The position numbers were made by a program, and so were the translations under genes. The notes below the pieces were generated by a model. It saw only the letters and a list, made by a program, of their open reading frames with translations. It was not told the origin of the DNA and made no database searches. Source: Alphaproteobacteria bacterium (GTDB lineage Bacteria; Pseudomonadota; Alphaproteobacteria; Micavibrionales; Micavibrionaceae). Taken from it: a DNA stretch of 49,993 bases. Of the stretch, positions 42,827 through 49,993 are shown one piece after another (positions within the stretch are counted from its first letter, which is position 1; every line of letters begins with the position of its first letter). Location of the stretch: positions 1 to 49,993 of the forward strand of contig JBDHTS010000001.1 of assembly GCA_039808845.1 (NCBI GenBank), in the 5' to 3' direction.

Positions 42827-42903
42827 GCGGGCGTAGTTCAGTTGGTTAGAACGCATCCCTGTCACGGATGAGGTCGCGGGTTCAAGTCCCGTCGCTCGCG
42901 CCA
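42827..42903 (+). tRNA. tRNA-Asp (anticodon GTC), CCA encoded
   Basis: Acceptor stem gcgggcg/cgctcgc, anticodon arm catcc-CTGTCAC-ggatg; 77 nt. Confidence 0.92.
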
Positions 42904-42955
42904 TTGGTTAACAAGACGTGGCTTTCGCCTAAAATTGTACGGATTAATGGCCGGA

Positions 42956-42992
42956 CCTGACCTTGCGTATTGCAAGGGTCAGGATCTTTTTT
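42956..42992 (+). terminator. Rho-independent terminator after tRNA-Asp
   Basis: cctgaccttgc-gtat-gcaag(g)gtcagg (one bulged G) followed by atctttttt. Confidence 0.75.
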
Positions 42993-43087
42993 AATACCAA
43001 AACGCCTGATTTCAACACATCCGTATGCGGCACAGGCCTTGCTGAACAGCTCTCCGGTATTTTCATTGCTACCGGAGGGGTTTTGTT

Positions 43088-45505
43088 ATGGCCATTCAAT
43101 CCGCCGCGCTCGATTTCAATCCCGGCGCTGTCAAGCTCGATGCCGATCTTTACCAGGTCGAAGATATTCACGGCATAACGGAAGGGTTGTCCGGCTCCGG
43201 CAACCTGAATTATCTGGTTCTGCAATCCGGGCAGACGGACGAAATTCGCCGCGATGCCGATCCGTTCAACATGCGCGAAGGCAATCTCTGGTTTTCAAAC
43301 GGCGCCGCGGCGCTGACCGAACGGACGCCGCAGAGCATCCATACCGGCGCACAGGGCGGCGATGCGTCCGGCATCCTATCGGACGGGCGTGCAGGCGGCA
43401 TCGGCGTCGATCTTCAGAACGCACGGGCGATTTCGGAACTGTCGCATGGGAATGCCGGATCCCCGCATTCCTATAATTCGGCCGTCGAGCATCAGGAGAA
43501 TGTCCCGAATTTCCGTGGCGGCGGCTCAAATGAACTGAACAGCCTGATCGAGCGTCTGGGGAATGGCACGAACGGGACATCCGGCGCGAACGGCGCGGAC
43601 GGTAAAAGCGCGGGCGCGCAGGATGGCCGGGACGGTCATGACGGTAACGACGGACATGATGGCCGCGACGGACGCAACGGAACTGGCGATCCCGGTCCGG
43701 GACCGGGTCCCGGCGACAACGGCGGGACTGATCCCGGAGACACGGACCTTCATGCCGATGCAGACACGCCTATCGGCAGCGTGACCCTTGACGTCCTGCT
43801 CGATCCGGTCGAACAGCTGGTCGGTGATATCGACATCAATGCGGGCGCACAGGTCAGCCTTGCCCCGCTGGCGCAGGGGCATCTGCCGACCATCGGCGTG
43901 AATGCCGATGCGCTGCTGCTCGGCACGCATCTTGGTATTAATACGACCACCCTGACCAACCCGGTGACGAACAGCGTCAACACGCTGCTGGATACGCTGG
44001 ACCCGATCATCAATCCCGTACTGAATCCGGTCATGAGCCCCTTGCCGCAGCCGCTGACCGACCTGATCAACGGATTTAACGGCGACGGCGATACCGATCT
44101 GGCGATCAATCCGGCCGCAGATCTTCTGGGCCTGCCGATCGCCGTCGGCGGTATCGCGGTGCCGCTGGACCCGGTCGAATCGCTTCTGGGAGACATCGAC
44201 CTGAACCTCAATCCGGCTCTGGGCGTGCTGGGCGGGGGACATCCGGTCGATCTCGGTCTGAATGGCGTTTTCAACGGCCAGGCCTTCGATTTCGACCTGC
44301 CTGGCGCCACAGGTCCACTGGCCGATCTGCTCGCGCCTCTCGACGGGCTCGGCGACCATGGCGCGGCAGAGGCCGTGAACGGACTGATCGACGATCTGGA
44401 CGCGGCGACGGGCCTGGAAGACACGCTTGATGACGCGCTCGATCCGGCGGCTGGTCTCCTGGACGATGTCCAGAGCGGCGCCGCCGGCCTGACCGGTCAT
44501 ATCCTTCAGCCGGTTGTTGATATTGCCGGAAGCATAACCGGCGACGTGGCGCAGTCCGTAACGGACACCGGGGTTATGGATCATCTGGATCATTTTCTGA
44601 CTCCCCTGGCCGACATGGTGGTTGATTTTGCCGATCAGGCGCAGGATCACCTTTCAGGAACCGCGAATGACACGCTGGCGGACCTTCATGACACGGTACA
44701 GGACGTTACGCCATCGGGTTCCGATATCGTCGGCGCCGTCCAGGACGCTGTTGACAGCCTTGTGGAGCACGTTGTGGATGCGTCCGGAGGCGTTACGGAC
44801 CCGCAAAGCATCCTGGCTGGCCTGACGCAACAGGCCGCGGAGCTTCTGACCGGCGATCCGGTGGAGGGGATTCATGGCGGGCTGGACGATGTCGCAGCGG
44901 GCGGCATCGGCAGCATCGGGGATATCCTGACGGGAGGCTCCCCGAACGGGGATACCGATCTGACCTTCCATACCGGAATCGACGCCGCCGGCACGATGGC
45001 GGAGGATCTGGGCGGCGCGGTCACGCTCGACCCGGTCGAGGCCATCGCGGGCGATATCGACATCGACGTGGATCTTGGCGCGAACGCCCTCGGCCATGCA
45101 TCAGCCCTGGGCGCCGATGCGGGCGTCGCGGCGCATGCCGATCCGATGGAAGGGCTGCTCAACGATCTTGCAAACAGCCTCTTGAATGACGGCGGCACGC
45201 AGGGAGGAGCAAACCCTCTTACGCCTTCATTGTCCGCTGTCACCGTAGAGGCCGGCGCGGGCCTTGATGCCATCGCCGGCCTCCCGTCTTCTCCGGGAGG
45301 CGCAATATTGTGGCCGGAAGCCGGAATAGGGGATGGGTTGAGCCAAGCGGCCGTCAATACGGCGACCGGTCTGGGGCAGACTGCCAATAACACCGTGGCG
45401 GCGGCCTTGCCCGATCCGGTCGGTCATGTCTCAGAGGGACTCAGTGCGGTTGTAGACCACAGCCATGCCACGGTTCATCACGCGCTGGGCGGATTGTTCG
45501 GATAA
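43088..45505 (+). CDS. Acidic, Cys-free repeat protein, putative type I secretion passenger (805 aa)
   Basis: SD ggagg lies 8 nt upstream. By my count there are about 93 Asp against 2 Lys, and no Cys. It has a collagen-like G-x-y run (aa ~160-200) and three GDTDL...LDPVExhhGDIDh modules. Exporter genes follow after 30 nt. Confidence 0.7.
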   Translation: MAIQSAALDFNPGAVKLDADLYQVEDIHGITEGLSGSGNLNYLVLQSGQTDEIRRDADPFNMREGNLWFSNGAAALTERTPQSIHTGAQGGDASGILSDGRAGGIGVDLQNARAISELSHGNAGSPHSYNSAVEHQENVPNFRGGGSNELNSLIERLGNGTNGTSGANGADGKSAGAQDGRDGHDGNDGHDGRDGRNGTGDPGPGPGPGDNGGTDPGDTDLHADADTPIGSVTLDVLLDPVEQLVGDIDINAGAQVSLAPLAQGHLPTIGVNADALLLGTHLGINTTTLTNPVTNSVNTLLDTLDPIINPVLNPVMSPLPQPLTDLINGFNGDGDTDLAINPAADLLGLPIAVGGIAVPLDPVESLLGDIDLNLNPALGVLGGGHPVDLGLNGVFNGQAFDFDLPGATGPLADLLAPLDGLGDHGAAEAVNGLIDDLDAATGLEDTLDDALDPAAGLLDDVQSGAAGLTGHILQPVVDIAGSITGDVAQSVTDTGVMDHLDHFLTPLADMVVDFADQAQDHLSGTANDTLADLHDTVQDVTPSGSDIVGAVQDAVDSLVEHVVDASGGVTDPQSILAGLTQQAAELLTGDPVEGIHGGLDDVAAGGIGSIGDILTGGSPNGDTDLTFHTGIDAAGTMAEDLGGAVTLDPVEAIAGDIDIDVDLGANALGHASALGADAGVAAHADPMEGLLNDLANSLLNDGGTQGGANPLTPSLSAVTVEAGAGLDAIAGLPSSPGGAILWPEAGIGDGLSQAAVNTATGLGQTANNTVAAALPDPVGHVSEGLSAVVDHSHATVHHALGGLFG

Positions 45506-45535: not shown

Positions 45536-47227
45536 ATGACGTTCATAAGAGAGGGGGCCGCGCGGGGCGGCCGGTCCAGCCTGCTGCTGGCGACGATGGC
45601 GATCAGCGTCCTGTCGCTGGCCCTGCCTGTGATGACGCTGCAGGTCTATGACCGCATCCTGCCCAATCCGGGGTCGGGAACGCTGGCCGTCCTGGCGGCG
45701 GGGGTGTGCGTGGCCGTGGCGCTGGAATGCTGCCTGCGGCTGGCGCGCGGATATATCATCAACTGGAACGGCGCGGCGTTCGACCACAGGATGTCGTATG
45801 AAGCCCTGGGCCATCTCCTGCATTCTGATCTGGCCGCGGCCCGCAAAATCAGCCCCGGCGAATACCTGAACCGCCTGTCCTCCATCGGCAGGATGAAGGA
45901 TTTTTTCAGCGGCAGCACCGCCGTGATCCTGTTCGAATTGATTCTCGTTCCTGTCTATTTCGCATTGATCGCCTATATCGCGGGCCCTCTTGTGCTGGTG
46001 CCTGCCGTTGTCCTGGGAGGGTTTTCAGTGCTGGCGTTCGTTTATGGACGGAAGCTGAGGGACAATCTGGAACGCCGCAACCGTGCCGACGACCAGCGTT
46101 ACGATTTCCTTCTGGACGCCCTGACCGGCATGCATACCCTGAAATCGTTCTGCCTGGAGGACGCGTTCACGCGGCGTTACGAGTGGATTGAGAAGCATTC
46201 GGCGCTGATCAACTACGACACGTCGCGCGACGCGGCGGCCAGTTTCAACGCGGCTAACGTCTTCGGGCACCTGATGTCCCTAATGATCATCGGCATCGGC
46301 GTGGAACGCGTGATCCATGGAGAGATGACGTCGGGCGCCCTGATCGCCGCGACTTTGCTGGCCGGGCGGATCATGCAGCCCGTCCAGCGCGCGCTGGGCC
46401 TGTGGGTGCGGTATCAGGATTACAAGCTGTCGAAAGCCAAGGCCGGGGAATTGTTTTCCCTGCCGACCGTAAAACGCGCAAGACGGCCTGAGCCGGCAAA
46501 AAGAGGTCAGATCCGGATCAAGGGCGTGTCATTCCGGCGCGGACCTGAGGATGGCGGGACGTTTGAAAATATCGGGCTGCATCTCAATGCGGGGGAAACC
46601 GTCCGGATCAGCGGCGGCAACGGCACGGCCAAAAGCCATCTGCTGGGCCTGATCGCCGGGCTGTATGCACCGGATTCGGGGGAGGCGCTGGTCGACGGGC
46701 TTGATCCGCTCCGCTATCCAAACGGGACTTTGCGCCGCCATGTCGGCCTTCTGAAGACCAAGGGCGAAGTGTTCCGGGGCACGATCCGCGACAACCTGAC
46801 CAGCTTTGGCAGCATCAGCGAAAAAGAAGCGCGCCGCACGACCCGCCTGCTGGGGATCGAGCGCGAGGTGGCGCGCCTGCCGCGCGGCTTCGATACCATG
46901 ATCGGCGAAAACGAGGGCGGAACCATTTCGCCCGGCTTGCAGCAGCGTATCGCCATCGCACGTGTCCTGGCCTGGGATCCGGGCATCATCCTGTTCGACA
47001 ACGCCGACCGCAACCTGGACCGCAACGGCTATCGCGCCGTGTACAGGCTGCTGGTTCATCTGAAGGGCCACAAGGCGCTGGCCCTGGTGACGGAAGACCC
47101 GAATTTCACCGGCCTGGCCGACAGGCAGCTCTGGCTTGAGCCCGGCGGGCTGCGTCCGATCGTCGCGCCGTCTTCCCGCCCGGTCGCCGCCGGGACCAGA
47201 GCCAGAGCGGCGGAGGTCGAGATATGA
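45536..47227 (+). CDS. Type I secretion ABC exporter subunit (TMD+NBD, no N-terminal accessory domain) with degenerate Walker A/B
   Basis: 563 aa. The TMD begins LPVMTLQVYDRILPN (T1SS PrtD/HlyB-like). NBD motifs are GGNGTAKS, ISPGLQQRIAIARVL, IILFDN and LVTEDP. Confidence 0.8.
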   Translation: MTFIREGAARGGRSSLLLATMAISVLSLALPVMTLQVYDRILPNPGSGTLAVLAAGVCVAVALECCLRLARGYIINWNGAAFDHRMSYEALGHLLHSDLAAARKISPGEYLNRLSSIGRMKDFFSGSTAVILFELILVPVYFALIAYIAGPLVLVPAVVLGGFSVLAFVYGRKLRDNLERRNRADDQRYDFLLDALTGMHTLKSFCLEDAFTRRYEWIEKHSALINYDTSRDAAASFNAANVFGHLMSLMIIGIGVERVIHGEMTSGALIAATLLAGRIMQPVQRALGLWVRYQDYKLSKAKAGELFSLPTVKRARRPEPAKRGQIRIKGVSFRRGPEDGGTFENIGLHLNAGETVRISGGNGTAKSHLLGLIAGLYAPDSGEALVDGLDPLRYPNGTLRRHVGLLKTKGEVFRGTIRDNLTSFGSISEKEARRTTRLLGIEREVARLPRGFDTMIGENEGGTISPGLQQRIAIARVLAWDPGIILFDNADRNLDRNGYRAVYRLLVHLKGHKALALVTEDPNFTGLADRQLWLEPGGLRPIVAPSSRPVAAGTRARAAEVEI

Positions 47228-49437
47228 TTTCCGCATCCGCCAGAAAAAGATTCGGCATGGCCGCCAGGCCGCAGGCGTCGAACGAGCAGCCGGCGGATAC
47301 CGTCAGCCGCCTGCATGAGCGTCTGCGCGAAACGGTCTGGCATGCCGTCCGCGCGGACAACGCCTGGAGCCGCGCCCTGTGCGCGCTGGTCCTAGTCAAG
47401 GCGCCACACATGCGGCAATACGCCGTGGCCGACGCCATGCCGTACGGCGAACAGCTTATCGACAGCGATTATGCCATCGAAGCCATGGCGAACCTTGGCT
47501 ATACGTGCAGCGTCCTGACGATGGAGCCGCGGGATCTCGATCCGCGCCTGCTGCCCGCGCTGTTCATTCCGGCATCGCGCCCCGATCATCCCTGCATCCT
47601 GCTGGACCGGGGCAGGATGTATGACGGGGCGCGCGGCCGTATCGTCAAAATACCGTCCAATGCCGGGCCGGGGCAGGCCATCCTGTTCCGCATGTATGAC
47701 GAGGAGCACGATCCCACCTCCAAATCCGCGCGGGCCAATACGGGCTGGCAGTGGTTCCGGACGTTGTTCAAACGCTTCAAGCCTGCCCTGGTCCGCATTT
47801 TCGCCATGGGCATGGTGCTGAATCTGATGGCGCTTGCGACGCCGTTGTTCATCATGATCGTGTACGACCGCGTGATTTCCACAAGCACGCCGTCCATCCT
47901 GCCCATGCTGGCGGCGGGGGCCGCGGCGTCTATCGGGCTGGAATGGATCCTGCGCGTCCTACGATCGCGCCATCTGTCCTGGCTGGCGACGCGGCTGGAC
48001 AATATCGTGAACAACAAGGTGTTCAGCCATCTGATGCATATGCCGCCCGCCCTGCTGGAAGGAGCGTCGGTGCAGAGCCAGATCGCGCGTCTGAAGACAT
48101 ATGAATCCGTCCGCGATTTCTTTTCCAGTCCCATATTCCTGTCGATGATCGAACTGCCGTTCACGGTGCTGGCGCTCATCTTCGTCGGCGCGGTGGCGGG
48201 GCCGCTGGTGCTGGTGCCGCTTGGTGGCGTCTGCCTCTACCTGCTCCTGTTTTTCCTCGTCTGGAGGAAGGTCCGCGTCTCCCTGAAAATCGCGGCGAAG
48301 GCGGGATCGGTGAAGCAGCGCTATATCCTCGACACGCTGATCAAGCTGGAGGATATCCGCGCGGGCGGGCTGCCCGATATCTGGCAGAAGAAATACCGCG
48401 ACATCAGCGGGCGGGAGGCCGCGGCGCATTTTCATCTGAACTGGCTGGGGCTGGTGGGCGAGACGGCGGCGAACGCCATCACCGTCCTGTCCGCCGTCGC
48501 CATCGTCGGGTTCGGGGCGGAACGTGTGTGGAGCGGGGCGATGAGCACCGGCGCGCTGGTCGCCTCCATGATCCTTGTCTGGCGTGTGCTCAATCCGTTT
48601 TACAGCCTGTGCACGATGGTGCCGCGCATCGACCAGCTGCGGAATTCCATCCGCCAGATCAACCAGCTGATGGATCTGGACACGGAAGAGCAGACGAGCC
48701 GCGCCCTGGCCAGGCCGGGGCCGTTGCAGGGAGGCATCAGCTTCGCCAATGTCGGCATGCGTTACGGCGCGGGCGATCCGGTTTTCGCGGGCCTGAGCTT
48801 CCAGGCGCAGCCGGGGCAGATCGTCGCCATCACGGGCGAGAACGGCGCGGGCAAGTCCACGTTGCTGAAGCTGGCGAAAGGGCTTTACCAGGCGCCTGCC
48901 GGCAGCGTCAGGCTCGACGGGTTCGACGTGCGCCAGCTCGATCCGGTGGCGCTGCGCCGCCGCATTGCCTATATTCCGCAAAACCCAACGTTCTTCCACG
49001 GCACGATCGAGGAAAACCTGCGCTTCGCCAATCCGCTGGCCACGCGCAGGGAAATAGAGATGGCGCTGGCGCAGGCCGACGCGCTCAAGGCCATTCTGGA
49101 TCTTCCGCGCGGGCTGGACACCGTGATCGGGGGCGAAGCGGGGATGCAATTGTCTTCGGATCTCGCGCTGCGCCTGTCTCTGGTGCGGGCCTATCTGCAC
49201 GACGCGCAGATCCTGCTGGTCGACGAATTGCCGAATTCCCTTCTGTCGGAGACGGCCGGGAAATTCCTGATGGAAGGATTGATCCGCAACCGCCGGGACC
49301 GGACGGTGCTGATGGTCACCTATCGCGCCGACATGCTGCGCTTCGCCGACCAGATCGTCTGGCTGCGCCTTGGTGAAGCACCGATGGCGGGCGAGCGGGA
49401 TTTCATGCTGCGCCAACTGAAGCAAGGCAACTGGTAA
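47224..49437 (+). CDS. Type I secretion ABC exporter subunit with N-terminal C39-like domain, canonical Walker A/B and degenerate signature motif
   Basis: 737 aa; ATGA overlap with the upstream ABC gene. The N-terminal ~170 aa contain Cys53 and His122 (RALCALVLV, RPDHPCILLD). The TMD begins ATPLFIMIVYDRVI. NBD motifs are GENGAGKST, IPQNP, LSSDLALRL, ILLVDE and MVTYR. Confidence 0.8.
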   Translation: MISASARKRFGMAARPQASNEQPADTVSRLHERLRETVWHAVRADNAWSRALCALVLVKAPHMRQYAVADAMPYGEQLIDSDYAIEAMANLGYTCSVLTMEPRDLDPRLLPALFIPASRPDHPCILLDRGRMYDGARGRIVKIPSNAGPGQAILFRMYDEEHDPTSKSARANTGWQWFRTLFKRFKPALVRIFAMGMVLNLMALATPLFIMIVYDRVISTSTPSILPMLAAGAAASIGLEWILRVLRSRHLSWLATRLDNIVNNKVFSHLMHMPPALLEGASVQSQIARLKTYESVRDFFSSPIFLSMIELPFTVLALIFVGAVAGPLVLVPLGGVCLYLLLFFLVWRKVRVSLKIAAKAGSVKQRYILDTLIKLEDIRAGGLPDIWQKKYRDISGREAAAHFHLNWLGLVGETAANAITVLSAVAIVGFGAERVWSGAMSTGALVASMILVWRVLNPFYSLCTMVPRIDQLRNSIRQINQLMDLDTEEQTSRALARPGPLQGGISFANVGMRYGAGDPVFAGLSFQAQPGQIVAITGENGAGKSTLLKLAKGLYQAPAGSVRLDGFDVRQLDPVALRRRIAYIPQNPTFFHGTIEENLRFANPLATRREIEMALAQADALKAILDLPRGLDTVIGGEAGMQLSSDLALRLSLVRAYLHDAQILLVDELPNSLLSETAGKFLMEGLIRNRRDRTVLMVTYRADMLRFADQIVWLRLGEAPMAGERDFMLRQLKQGNW

Positions 49438-49465: not shown

Positions 49466-49993
49466 ATGATCAAATCCATGACACAAAGCGAGCGGCAGTT
49501 CCGCCACCTGACCCAGTCGGAAAAGCTGGAGGAGTCGGAAGACCCGATCCTCGTCCGCATGACCCTGGCGGCAATCAGCGCCTGCATCGTCGGGTTCGTG
49601 TTGTGGGCGTCCGTCACTAACGTCAACGAAGTGGCGCGGACGCCCGGCGAAATCGTGCCGCAGGGGTTTCAGCAGACCGTCCAGCATCTGGAGGGCGGGA
49701 TCGTCCGTCAGATCCTGGCGCGGGAAGGGCAGGAAGTGCAGAAAGGCCAGATCCTCGCCGTTCTCGATGGAAACGGCGCGCAGCAGGACATGAAGCGCGC
49801 GGCGGCTCATCAGGTGGCGCTTGAACTGCAAAAGGAGCGCCTGCGGGCCTATATCGACGGGCGCCAGCCGGATTTCCGGCGCTTTATCGGACTCGCTGAT
49901 CCGAAAATGATCCAGGACCAGAAAGACGCGTTCGCGGCGATGATGGATGCGCGCGGCAAGGAAAAGGATATTATCCGCGACCAGATCAGTCAG
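49466..49993 (+). CDS. HlyD-family type I secretion membrane-fusion (periplasmic adaptor) protein, N-terminal 176 codons (runs off the window end)
   Basis: Absent from the ORF track because it is open-ended. My translation from the ATG at 49466 reads MIKSMTQSERQFRHL...LVRMTLAAISACIVGFVLWASVTNVNEVARTPGEIVPQGFQQTVQHLEGGIVRQILAREGQEVQKGQILAVLDG..., i.e. a TM anchor plus the lipoyl-like motif typical of HlyD/PrtE. Confidence 0.8.
   Translation, partial: MIKSMTQSERQFRHLTQSEKLEESEDPILVRMTLAAISACIVGFVLWASVTNVNEVARTPGEIVPQGFQQTVQHLEGGIVRQILAREGQEVQKGQILAVLDGNGAQQDMKRAAAHQVALELQKERLRAYIDGRQPDFRRFIGLADPKMIQDQKDAFAAMMDARGKEKDIIRDQISQ

Follow-up and report, generated by a model that had tools for sequence, protein, structure and literature searches.

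Models of type I secretion systems (T1SS) rest on homodimeric ATP-binding cassette (ABC) engines with two equivalent ATP sites, such as HlyB, PrtD and LapB. An operon at the end of a 49,993-nucleotide stretch of Micavibrionaceae DNA (positions 1-49,993, hereafter the window) raises the question of whether such an engine can also be built from two different ABC proteins that share a single usable ATP site. The operon consists of four co-directional open reading frames (ORFs) on the + strand, which encode, in order, a putative cargo protein, two ABC proteins that we call ABC-1 and ABC-2, and a periplasmic adaptor of the HlyD family (Table 1). The original prediction, made from the sequence alone, held that ABC-1 and ABC-2 are an obligate pair with one usable and one dead ATP site. 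We consider it probable that the four genes form one T1SS operon and that its engine is most likely an obligate ABC-1/ABC-2 heterodimer with a single usable site: synteny, reciprocal conservation and mirrored trees all speak for the pairing that had been proposed, but the usable site turns out to be non-canonical.

The motifs of the nucleotide-binding domains (NBDs) were assigned from HMMER alignments to HlyB and ABCB1 and from a MAFFT alignment that included RtxB and RtxE of Vibrio vulnificus, and these alignments bore out every motif position of the original prediction. The motif states are also as it described them, the dead site being composed of the ABC-1 Walker motifs and the ABC-2 signature (Table 1). 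In addition, the Q-loop Gln is replaced by Thr408 in ABC-1 and kept as Gln586 in ABC-2, and the A-loop aromatic residue is Arg in ABC-1 and Tyr in ABC-2. The D-loop of ABC-2 (PNSLL), which the prediction had missed, is degenerate as well. Two of its statements have to be amended. The ABC-1 signature, said to be fairly well kept, actually changes from LSGGQ to ISPGL in the window and to I-P-P-G-L in the family consensus. The site said to be competent has indeed a canonical Walker A, Walker B and Q-loop in ABC-2, but its switch residue is a Tyr and the signature contributed by its partner is not the standard one.

The same motif states were found in the top 120 database homologues of each protein and in 45 Micavibrio-like genomes, chosen as having an ABC-1 without the catalytic Glu, and are therefore not due to chance. 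Among the ABC-1 homologues, the catalytic Glu is replaced by Asn in 109/120 and the switch His by Asp or Glu in 113/120, and the variable Walker A has its Lys in just 75/120. This motif is the most variable in the family, its Lys being gone in 11 of the 45 genomes. The ABC-1 signature, [IV]-P-P-G-L-[KR]-Q-R, is nearly invariant (Pro and Gly in 120/120 homologues; Gly in 45/45 and Leu in 44/45 genomes), and so are the D-loop and the Walker B Asp across the family. As for ABC-2, the Walker A Lys and the Walker B Asp are present in 120/120 homologues, the Asp-Glu pair with the catalytic Glu in 108/120, and the A-loop Tyr in 43/45 genomes; its signature is loose across the family (L-[STP]-S-[SN]-L). 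At its switch position, 103 of the 120 homologues have Tyr, 15 have His and 2 have Phe; at the Q-loop position, 71 have Gln, 43 Lys and 6 Arg. The mean column entropy over the 45 genomes summarizes this reciprocity: 1.63 bits in ABC-1 and 0.77 bits in ABC-2 for Walker A, 0.55 bits and 1.71 bits, respectively, for the signature. This is the pattern to be anticipated for an ABC-1 signature that serves the Walker site of ABC-2 and an opposite site that is free to drift; separate homodimers would be hard to reconcile with it.

The two genes also occur together across genomes. A profile scan of one genome per species recognized the ABC-1 family in 92 genomes, from which 80 loci were retained. An ABC-2 homologue lies directly 3' of ABC-1 in 69/69 loci having at least 2.3 kb of downstream sequence, and the 4-nt overlap found in the window is present at 56 of 78 ABC-1/ABC-2 junctions. 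The scan was seeded from ABC-1; the reverse direction consisted of two look-ups from ABC-2 homologues, both of which displayed the same order (unknown protein, ABC-1, ABC-2, adaptor), in agreement with the pairing.

In the head-to-tail NBD sandwich that we envisage, two composite ATP sites would each mix residues of both subunits. The working site would draw on ABC-2 for the A-loop Tyr, Walker A, Q-loop, Walker B Asp-Glu and Tyr/His switch residue, and on ABC-1 for the strongly conserved signature I-[PS]-P-G-L and the D-loop ADRxLD. This would be the sole plausible ATP-hydrolyzing site, with kinetics that are probably unusual given its Tyr switch and non-standard signature. The other site, which would join the eroded Walker A of ABC-1, with Thr, Asn and Glu/Asp in place of Gln, Glu and His, to the eroded signature and D-loop of ABC-2, would be catalytically dead. 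Nucleotide binding may persist at this site in the window, since Lys366, Ser367 and Asp488 are retained there, but some relatives are without even the Walker A lysine. By analogy with HlyB, the C39-like domain of ABC-2 presumably docks unfolded cargo, docking being preferred to cleavage because the Cys/His pair is not conserved (see below), and the outer-membrane channel would be encoded elsewhere. Physical heterodimerization, hydrolysis at a single site, the identity of the cargo and the role of its signal are points that we infer from sequence comparison. If the proposal is true, proteins of 500 to about 1,900 residues can be moved without a second hydrolytic site, and the asymmetry of the complex makes it possible to tell apart what each site and the C39-like domain contribute.

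With several catalytic residues lost and a highly variable Walker A, ABC-1 could be taken for a functionless duplicate in decay, ABC-2 alone driving secretion. We hold this to be very improbable: the ABC-1 ORF is unbroken in 80/80 loci, its 4-nt overlap with ABC-2 is conserved, the ABC-1 and ABC-2 trees mirror each other (see below), and its signature, D-loop and Walker B Asp are near-invariant. Moreover, its ratio of nonsynonymous to synonymous substitution rates (dN/dS), calculated against two relatives (L002 and L001), is 0.15-0.18 over the whole protein, 0.18-0.20 in the NBD and 0.11-0.13 in the transmembrane domain (TMD), these values being rough (dS of about 1-1.6). ABC-1 is under purifying selection as judged from these ratios, which, together with the motif conservation, exclude a pseudogene. 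Less remote, but still unlikely in our view, are homodimers of ABC-1 and of ABC-2 co-assembled in one adaptor ring, in which the ABC-2 dimers would do the work and the ABC-1 dimers would play an ATP-independent structural or gating role. The solved HlyB/HlyD complex does comprise several ABC dimers per machine (PDB 7SGR and 8DCK), and the absence of a cargo-docking C39-like domain from ABC-1 is consistent with such a division of labor. However, an ABC-2 homodimer would join good Walker motifs to its own eroded signature (LSSDL, 1.71 bits) and D-loop, and an ABC-1 homodimer would provide no reason for a near-invariant signature and D-loop (0.55 bits) while Walker A drifts; the reciprocity is what heterodimers would be expected to produce.

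Improbable to about the same degree is a heterodimer devoid of efficient turnover at either site, in which ATP binding at a single slow site would gate or prime a nucleotide-regulated conduit. This would account for a "good" site that is without the switch His (Tyr in 103/120 homologues), has an IPPGL-type signature and is missing the Q-loop Gln in 15/45 genomes. By contrast, the conservation of the ABC-2 Lys (120/120), Asp (120/120), Glu (108/120) and A-loop Tyr (43/45) fits selection for catalysis, and the interchange of Tyr and His at the switch position within the family suggests that Tyr substitutes functionally. The single-site heterodimer that we favor nonetheless has to accommodate several observations that weigh against it. 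In its nominally competent site, Tyr700 stands where the switch His should be and ISPGL where LSGGQ is standard; in HlyB, mutation of the switch His (H662) almost eliminates ATPase activity, as Zaitseva et al. reportedly found in 2005. The Q-loop Gln of ABC-2 is replaced by Lys in 15/45 genomes, so that hydrolysis at that site is an assumption. Three ABC dimers sit within the adaptor ring of the HlyB/HlyD assembly (PDB 7SGR), and mixed homodimer assemblies would be conceivable from the sequence. The curated cut-off of the best-matching T1SS family, TIGR03375 (693.1 bits), is reached by neither ABC-1 nor ABC-2. Finally, no gene for a TolC-like outer-membrane factor was found in the operon of the window or of three related loci (L002, L082 and L084); an unlinked TolC is used by many T1SS.

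A bolder version of the proposal can be put forward only tentatively, our doubts about it being stronger than our confidence: Micavibrio-like predators would possess a dedicated T1SS that runs on a single non-canonical ATP site, the second site being without the Walker A Lys in several lineages and probably without nucleotide binding, and that handles a new cargo class (LDAD...GSGNLNYLVLQS plus GGLFG) with a possible role in prey contact.

Two lineage-specific variations were noticed in the NBDs. ABC-1 of loci L005, L007, L012, L019, L021 and L034 has a Walker A without Lys (e.g. SDHTPSLAA), which suggests that the dead site has stopped binding nucleotide in these lineages. An ABC-2 sub-clade (L008, L013, L016, L020, L023, L025-L033, L036 and L076) combines a Q-loop Lys (AYVPK..) with a Walker A of the form GxNGTGKAT and an H-loop C[ST]YRE; as read from these motifs, it is a further departure from consensus inside the supposedly active site.

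Family assignment supports the view that these are T1SS genes. Both proteins contain the Pfam domains ABC_membrane and ABC_tran. The TMD of ABC-1 begins at about residue 17 and its start codon, with a purine-rich AGAGAGGGG in front, lies 30 nt past the upstream stop codon, which leaves no room for an N-terminal domain; ABC-1 is thus made of TMD and NBD only, as had been claimed. The top NCBIfam models for both proteins are T1SS models of the LssB, HlyB and PrtD types. The best is the LssB-type TIGR03375 (340.7 bits for ABC-1, 425.0 bits for ABC-2), whose whole profile, N-terminal domain included, is spanned by ABC-2; scores on the HlyB-subfamily model TIGR01846 are 257 and 293 bits (cut-off 725.55). 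HlyB is the top PDB match of ABC-1 and one among those of ABC-2 (186-191 bits by phmmer), and the nearest PDB relatives of the pair are 7SGR and 8DCK. The LssB-type match and the neighboring HlyD-type adaptor gene agree with the earlier description of the pair as T1SS ABC genes. Indeed, the adaptor fragment (176 aa in the window) matches TIGR01843 with E = 5.4e-33, a full-length orthologue in L002 scores 369 bits on this model (cut-off 208.65), and an adaptor gene is found 3' of ABC-2 in related loci too. Homologues of each ABC protein number in the hundreds, with 46-79% identity, and come chiefly from Micavibrio and uncultured Alphaproteobacteria; the existing labels of the two genes are generic ("peptidase domain-containing ABC transporter" or, for many homologues at JGI, "LapB"). 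Orthology with the NHLP ABC1/ABC2 pair was rejected, the scores on TIGR03796/TIGR03797 (175/171 bits for ABC-1 and 211/169 bits for ABC-2) being set against cut-offs of 853.3/709.4 bits, and orthology with RtxB/RtxE was ruled out by the family scores (TIGR01846 versus TIGR03375).

ABC-2 was also said to carry an additional N-terminal C39-like domain. An AlphaFold2 model of residues 1-189 (predicted local distance difference test score, pLDDT, of 86.9) and its Foldseek matches agree with this. The top matches are all C39 or C39-like domains (3B79, LahT 6MPZ, ComA 5XE9 and 3K8U, 7N87, PCAT1 and the HlyB C39-like domain 3ZUA), with target-normalized template-modeling (TM) scores of 0.50-0.61 for the stand-alone domain entries. 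At the sequence level, Pfam Peptidase_C39 gave no match in the window ABC-2 at E <= 0.01 and a weak match in 6/25 ABC-2 homologues, and PDB searches with the domain, either as a single sequence or as a 25-sequence profile, returned nothing meaningful. The catalytic pair put forward earlier, Cys53/His122, did not withstand comparison: Cys53 is found in 44/66 sequences and replaced by L, S, T or M in others, and any of T, E, H, P, S and R can occupy position 122. An active C39 peptidase was rejected on these grounds, and the domain is best read, from the model, as a C39 fold of the non-catalytic, C39-like type. Its confinement to ABC-2 makes the pair asymmetric in architecture besides the NBDs.

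The direction of change can be read from a sister clade of 20 genomes, including Magnetospirillum, Sneathiella and Rhodothalassium salexigens, in which the ABC-1/ABC-2/adaptor arrangement is the same. There, Walker A, the Q-loop Gln and the Asp-Glu of Walker B are canonical in both NBDs and the switch His is mostly present too, only the signatures being unusual, namely LP[GR]GI (LPGGI/LPRGI) and LP[AT][GS]F (LPAGF/LPTSF). A neighbor-joining tree of both paralogues, a check suggested by the original prediction, contains two reciprocal clades that mirror each other, each being split into a 46-member and a 20-member sub-clade. Since the ABC-1 and ABC-2 clades split alike, the pairing is older than the split and the one-sided degeneration is derived. 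The intact sister clade and the canonical RtxB/RtxE thus offer steps for studying the origin of degenerate sites and, if our proposal is true, the sister clade constitutes a natural series on why T1SS ABC engines need two sites.

How far the system resembles known ones depends on the feature compared. In passages that cite Boardman & Satchell 2004, the MARTX system of Vibrio (RtxB/RtxD/RtxE plus TolC) is described as requiring both ABC proteins, for which a heterodimer is suggested (PMC4316617, PMC3034196). It is likewise a T1SS in which one HlyD-type adaptor goes with two distinct ABC genes, and to this extent the analogy drawn in the original prediction is apt. It fails at the level of the NBDs and of the subfamily. 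Unlike ABC-1/ABC-2, the RtxB and RtxE that we compared (from V. vulnificus plasmid pR99) are fully canonical in Walker A, Q-loop, LSGGQ, Walker B Asp-Glu, SALD D-loop and switch His, and their scores on TIGR01846 (802 and 1141 bits) place them in the HlyB subfamily. In addition, the gene order is B-D-E instead of ABC1-ABC2-adaptor; RtxB and RtxE both match the HlyB profile nearly from the N-terminus and so apparently both have the N-terminal domain, which only ABC-2 has in the window; and their cargo, a MARTX toxin, is of the RTX class, whereas that of the window is non-RTX. Being canonical and of the HlyB subfamily, RtxB/RtxE leave the window system as an independent two-ABC T1SS.

Heterodimeric type IV ABC exporters such as TM287/288, TmrAB, BmrCD, LmrCD and TAP1/2 are characterized by complementary degeneracy (PMC7756269). 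The window pair shares with them adjacent paralogous half-transporter genes, one NBD without catalytic Glu and switch His, an altered signature in the partner and, consequently, one consensus and one degenerate site. These exporters transport drugs or peptides without adaptor or outer-membrane channel, however, whereas the window pair has an adaptor. The degenerate sites of these exporters keep the Walker A lysine and bind ATP. In the family studied here, by contrast, no motif is under weaker constraint than the Walker A of ABC-1, the Lys of which is gone in 11/45 genomes; a second site that has probably lost nucleotide binding would go further than the degenerate sites of the TM287/288, TAP and CFTR type. 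The consensus site of the window pair itself deviates (Tyr switch, IPPGL-type signature), and there is one C39-like domain per pair, again unlike type IV heterodimers. The degenerate site of yeast Pdr5 shows the same kinds of substitution as seen here, namely Asn for the catalytic Glu, Tyr for the switch His and an absent Walker A Lys, but Pdr5 is a full-length eukaryotic PDR transporter of another fold class and its Tyr lies in the dead site, whereas that of ABC-2 lies in an otherwise intact site. Among T1SS engines, LssB and LapB, as described, are homodimers with canonical NBDs; their type is the best-scoring family for both proteins of the window, from which ABC-1 differs by its missing N-terminal domain. 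HlyB has the same TMD and NBD, and its C39-like domain shares the fold class of the ABC-2 N-terminal domain, whose catalytic pair is not conserved; it differs in being a homodimer with two canonical sites, two C39-like domains and an RTX cargo. Full-text literature searches brought up no account of a T1SS engine that is a heterodimer with a degenerate site, the only near-precedent being a Chem Rev review in which TmrAB is called the basis of a "T1SS" of Thermus (PMC8277102); a review of degenerate-site heterodimers gives no T1SS example (PMC7756269). For T1SS, these searches agree with the original remark that the combination looks undescribed; degenerate sites as such are known in several heterodimeric exporters (PMC7756269). 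The system combines two known ideas, the two-ABC T1SS and the degenerate-site heterodimer, with a new cargo family.

The putative cargo is acidic (isoelectric point of about 4.05), with no Cys, 2 Lys and 27% Asp plus Gly, and contains three GDTDL...LDPVExxxGDIDI units. It has no Pfam or NCBIfam match, neither collection has a model of the family, and all of its homologues are labeled "hypothetical protein". As already noted from the sequence, it is a non-RTX passenger: tandem GGxGxDxUx nonapeptide repeats are lacking, and GGxGxD matches once in the window cargo, 0-2 times in related cargo genes and 9 times in that of L042. Its N-terminal module follows the family pattern LDAD..Y..D[IL]DG.TE.L.GSGNLNYLVLQS. 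At the other end, the C-terminus is exactly GGLFG in 64 of 72 cargo homologues (P0241-P0312), and an alignment of 43 genes upstream of ABC-1 yields the pattern LPDPxGxxxEGLG...GGLFG; judging from this conservation, the C-terminal module is likely a secretion signal. A gene of the GGLFG family lies directly 5' of ABC-1, often with a 4-nt overlap, in 43 loci (among L001-L048), nearly all of the degenerate clade, and was not seen upstream of ABC-1 in the sister clade. Our literature search turned up nothing relevant on a GGLFG-terminated family. Unannotated and presumably secreted, the GGLFG proteins seem to be specific to the lineage of Micavibrio-like epibiotic predators, which makes them candidate predation factors.

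In Micavibrio strain HCB189 (L011), the ABC pair is preceded by a 932-aa GGLFG protein. The genome paper of M. aeruginosavorus ARL-13 lists GMV0108 (TolC), GMV0110 (hlyB) and GMV0111 (hlyD) beside GMV0107, of 2,892 aa; it skips GMV0109 and leaves a second ABC gene undiscussed (PMC3189940). Because the HCB189 pair follows a 932-aa GGLFG protein, unlike the 2,892-aa GMV0107, Micavibrio may have more than one T1SS locus.

Table 1. Features of the T1SS operon in the window, and loci of the sister clade
Feature	Position	Strand	Basis or remark
Putative cargo gene	43088..45505	+	ORF, 805 aa, directly upstream of ABC-1
Cargo conserved N-terminal module KLDADLYQVEDIHGITEGLSGSGNLNYLVLQSGQT	43133..43237	+	Database homologues
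Cargo conserved C-terminal module LPDPVGHVSEGLS...HHALGGLFG-COOH	45407..45502	+	Candidate secretion signal
ABC-1 half-transporter, TMD + NBD, 563 aa	45536..47227	+	ORF, Pfam, alignments
ABC-1 Walker A GGNGTAKS, residues 360-367	46613..46636	+	Lys366 kept, preceding Gly to Ala
ABC-1 signature ISPGL, residues 464-468	46925..46939	+	Family consensus IPPGL
ABC-1 Walker B + D-loop, IILFDN-ADRNLD	46985..47020	+	Catalytic Glu to Asn489
ABC-1 H-loop VTEDP	47087..47101	+	Switch His to Glu520
ATGA overlap, ABC-1 stop/ABC-2 start, translational coupling	47224..47227	+	Sequence
ABC-2, C39-like domain + TMD + NBD, 737 aa	47224..49437	+	ORF, Pfam, alignments
ABC-2 C39-like domain, residues ~40-178	47341..47757	+	AlphaFold2 + Foldseek; predicted non-catalytic
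ABC-2 Walker A GENGAGKST, residues 538-546, canonical	48835..48861	+	Alignments
ABC-2 signature LSSDL, residues 643-647, degenerate	49150..49164	+	Alignments
ABC-2 Walker B + D-loop, ILLVDE-LPNSLL	49210..49245	+	D667-E668 kept, D-loop degenerate
ABC-2 H-loop VTYRA	49315..49329	+	Switch His to Tyr700
HlyD-family periplasmic adaptor gene, 5' part, cut by window end	49466..49993	+	TIGR01843
Sister-clade loci L050, L053, L065-L070, L066, L073, L074, L078			Magnetospirillum, Sneathiella, Rhodothalassium, related metagenome-assembled genomes

As for the layout of the operon, the two ABC ORFs and their ATGA overlap are exactly where they had been placed, the junction reading GAG ATA TGA / ATG ATT TCC. 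In a consensus scan, the + strand was free of terminator-like sites all the way from the cargo gene to the window end, and the single promoter-like match (42908-42935) is no more than expected by chance. Upstream of the cargo gene, a tRNA-Asp (GTC) gene at 42827-42903 is followed by a GC-rich hairpin with a T-run at 42945-42995, seen by eye, so that the operon would start a fresh transcription unit. It would do so beside housekeeping genes, presumably lon, hupB, a proline iminopeptidase-like gene and ald, as named by eye.

Two further observations concern homologous loci. In a marine relative (L082 and L083, 11611-18265), a cluster of response-regulator and hybrid histidine-kinase genes lies directly 3' of the adaptor gene on the same strand and could regulate the secretion operon. 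One database homologue, P0165 (1220 aa), appears to unite ABC-2 and an HlyD-type adaptor in a single product that has both the ABC and the AprE/HlyD domains of Pfam; the fusion may be genuine, or may stem from a frameshift or an assembly error.

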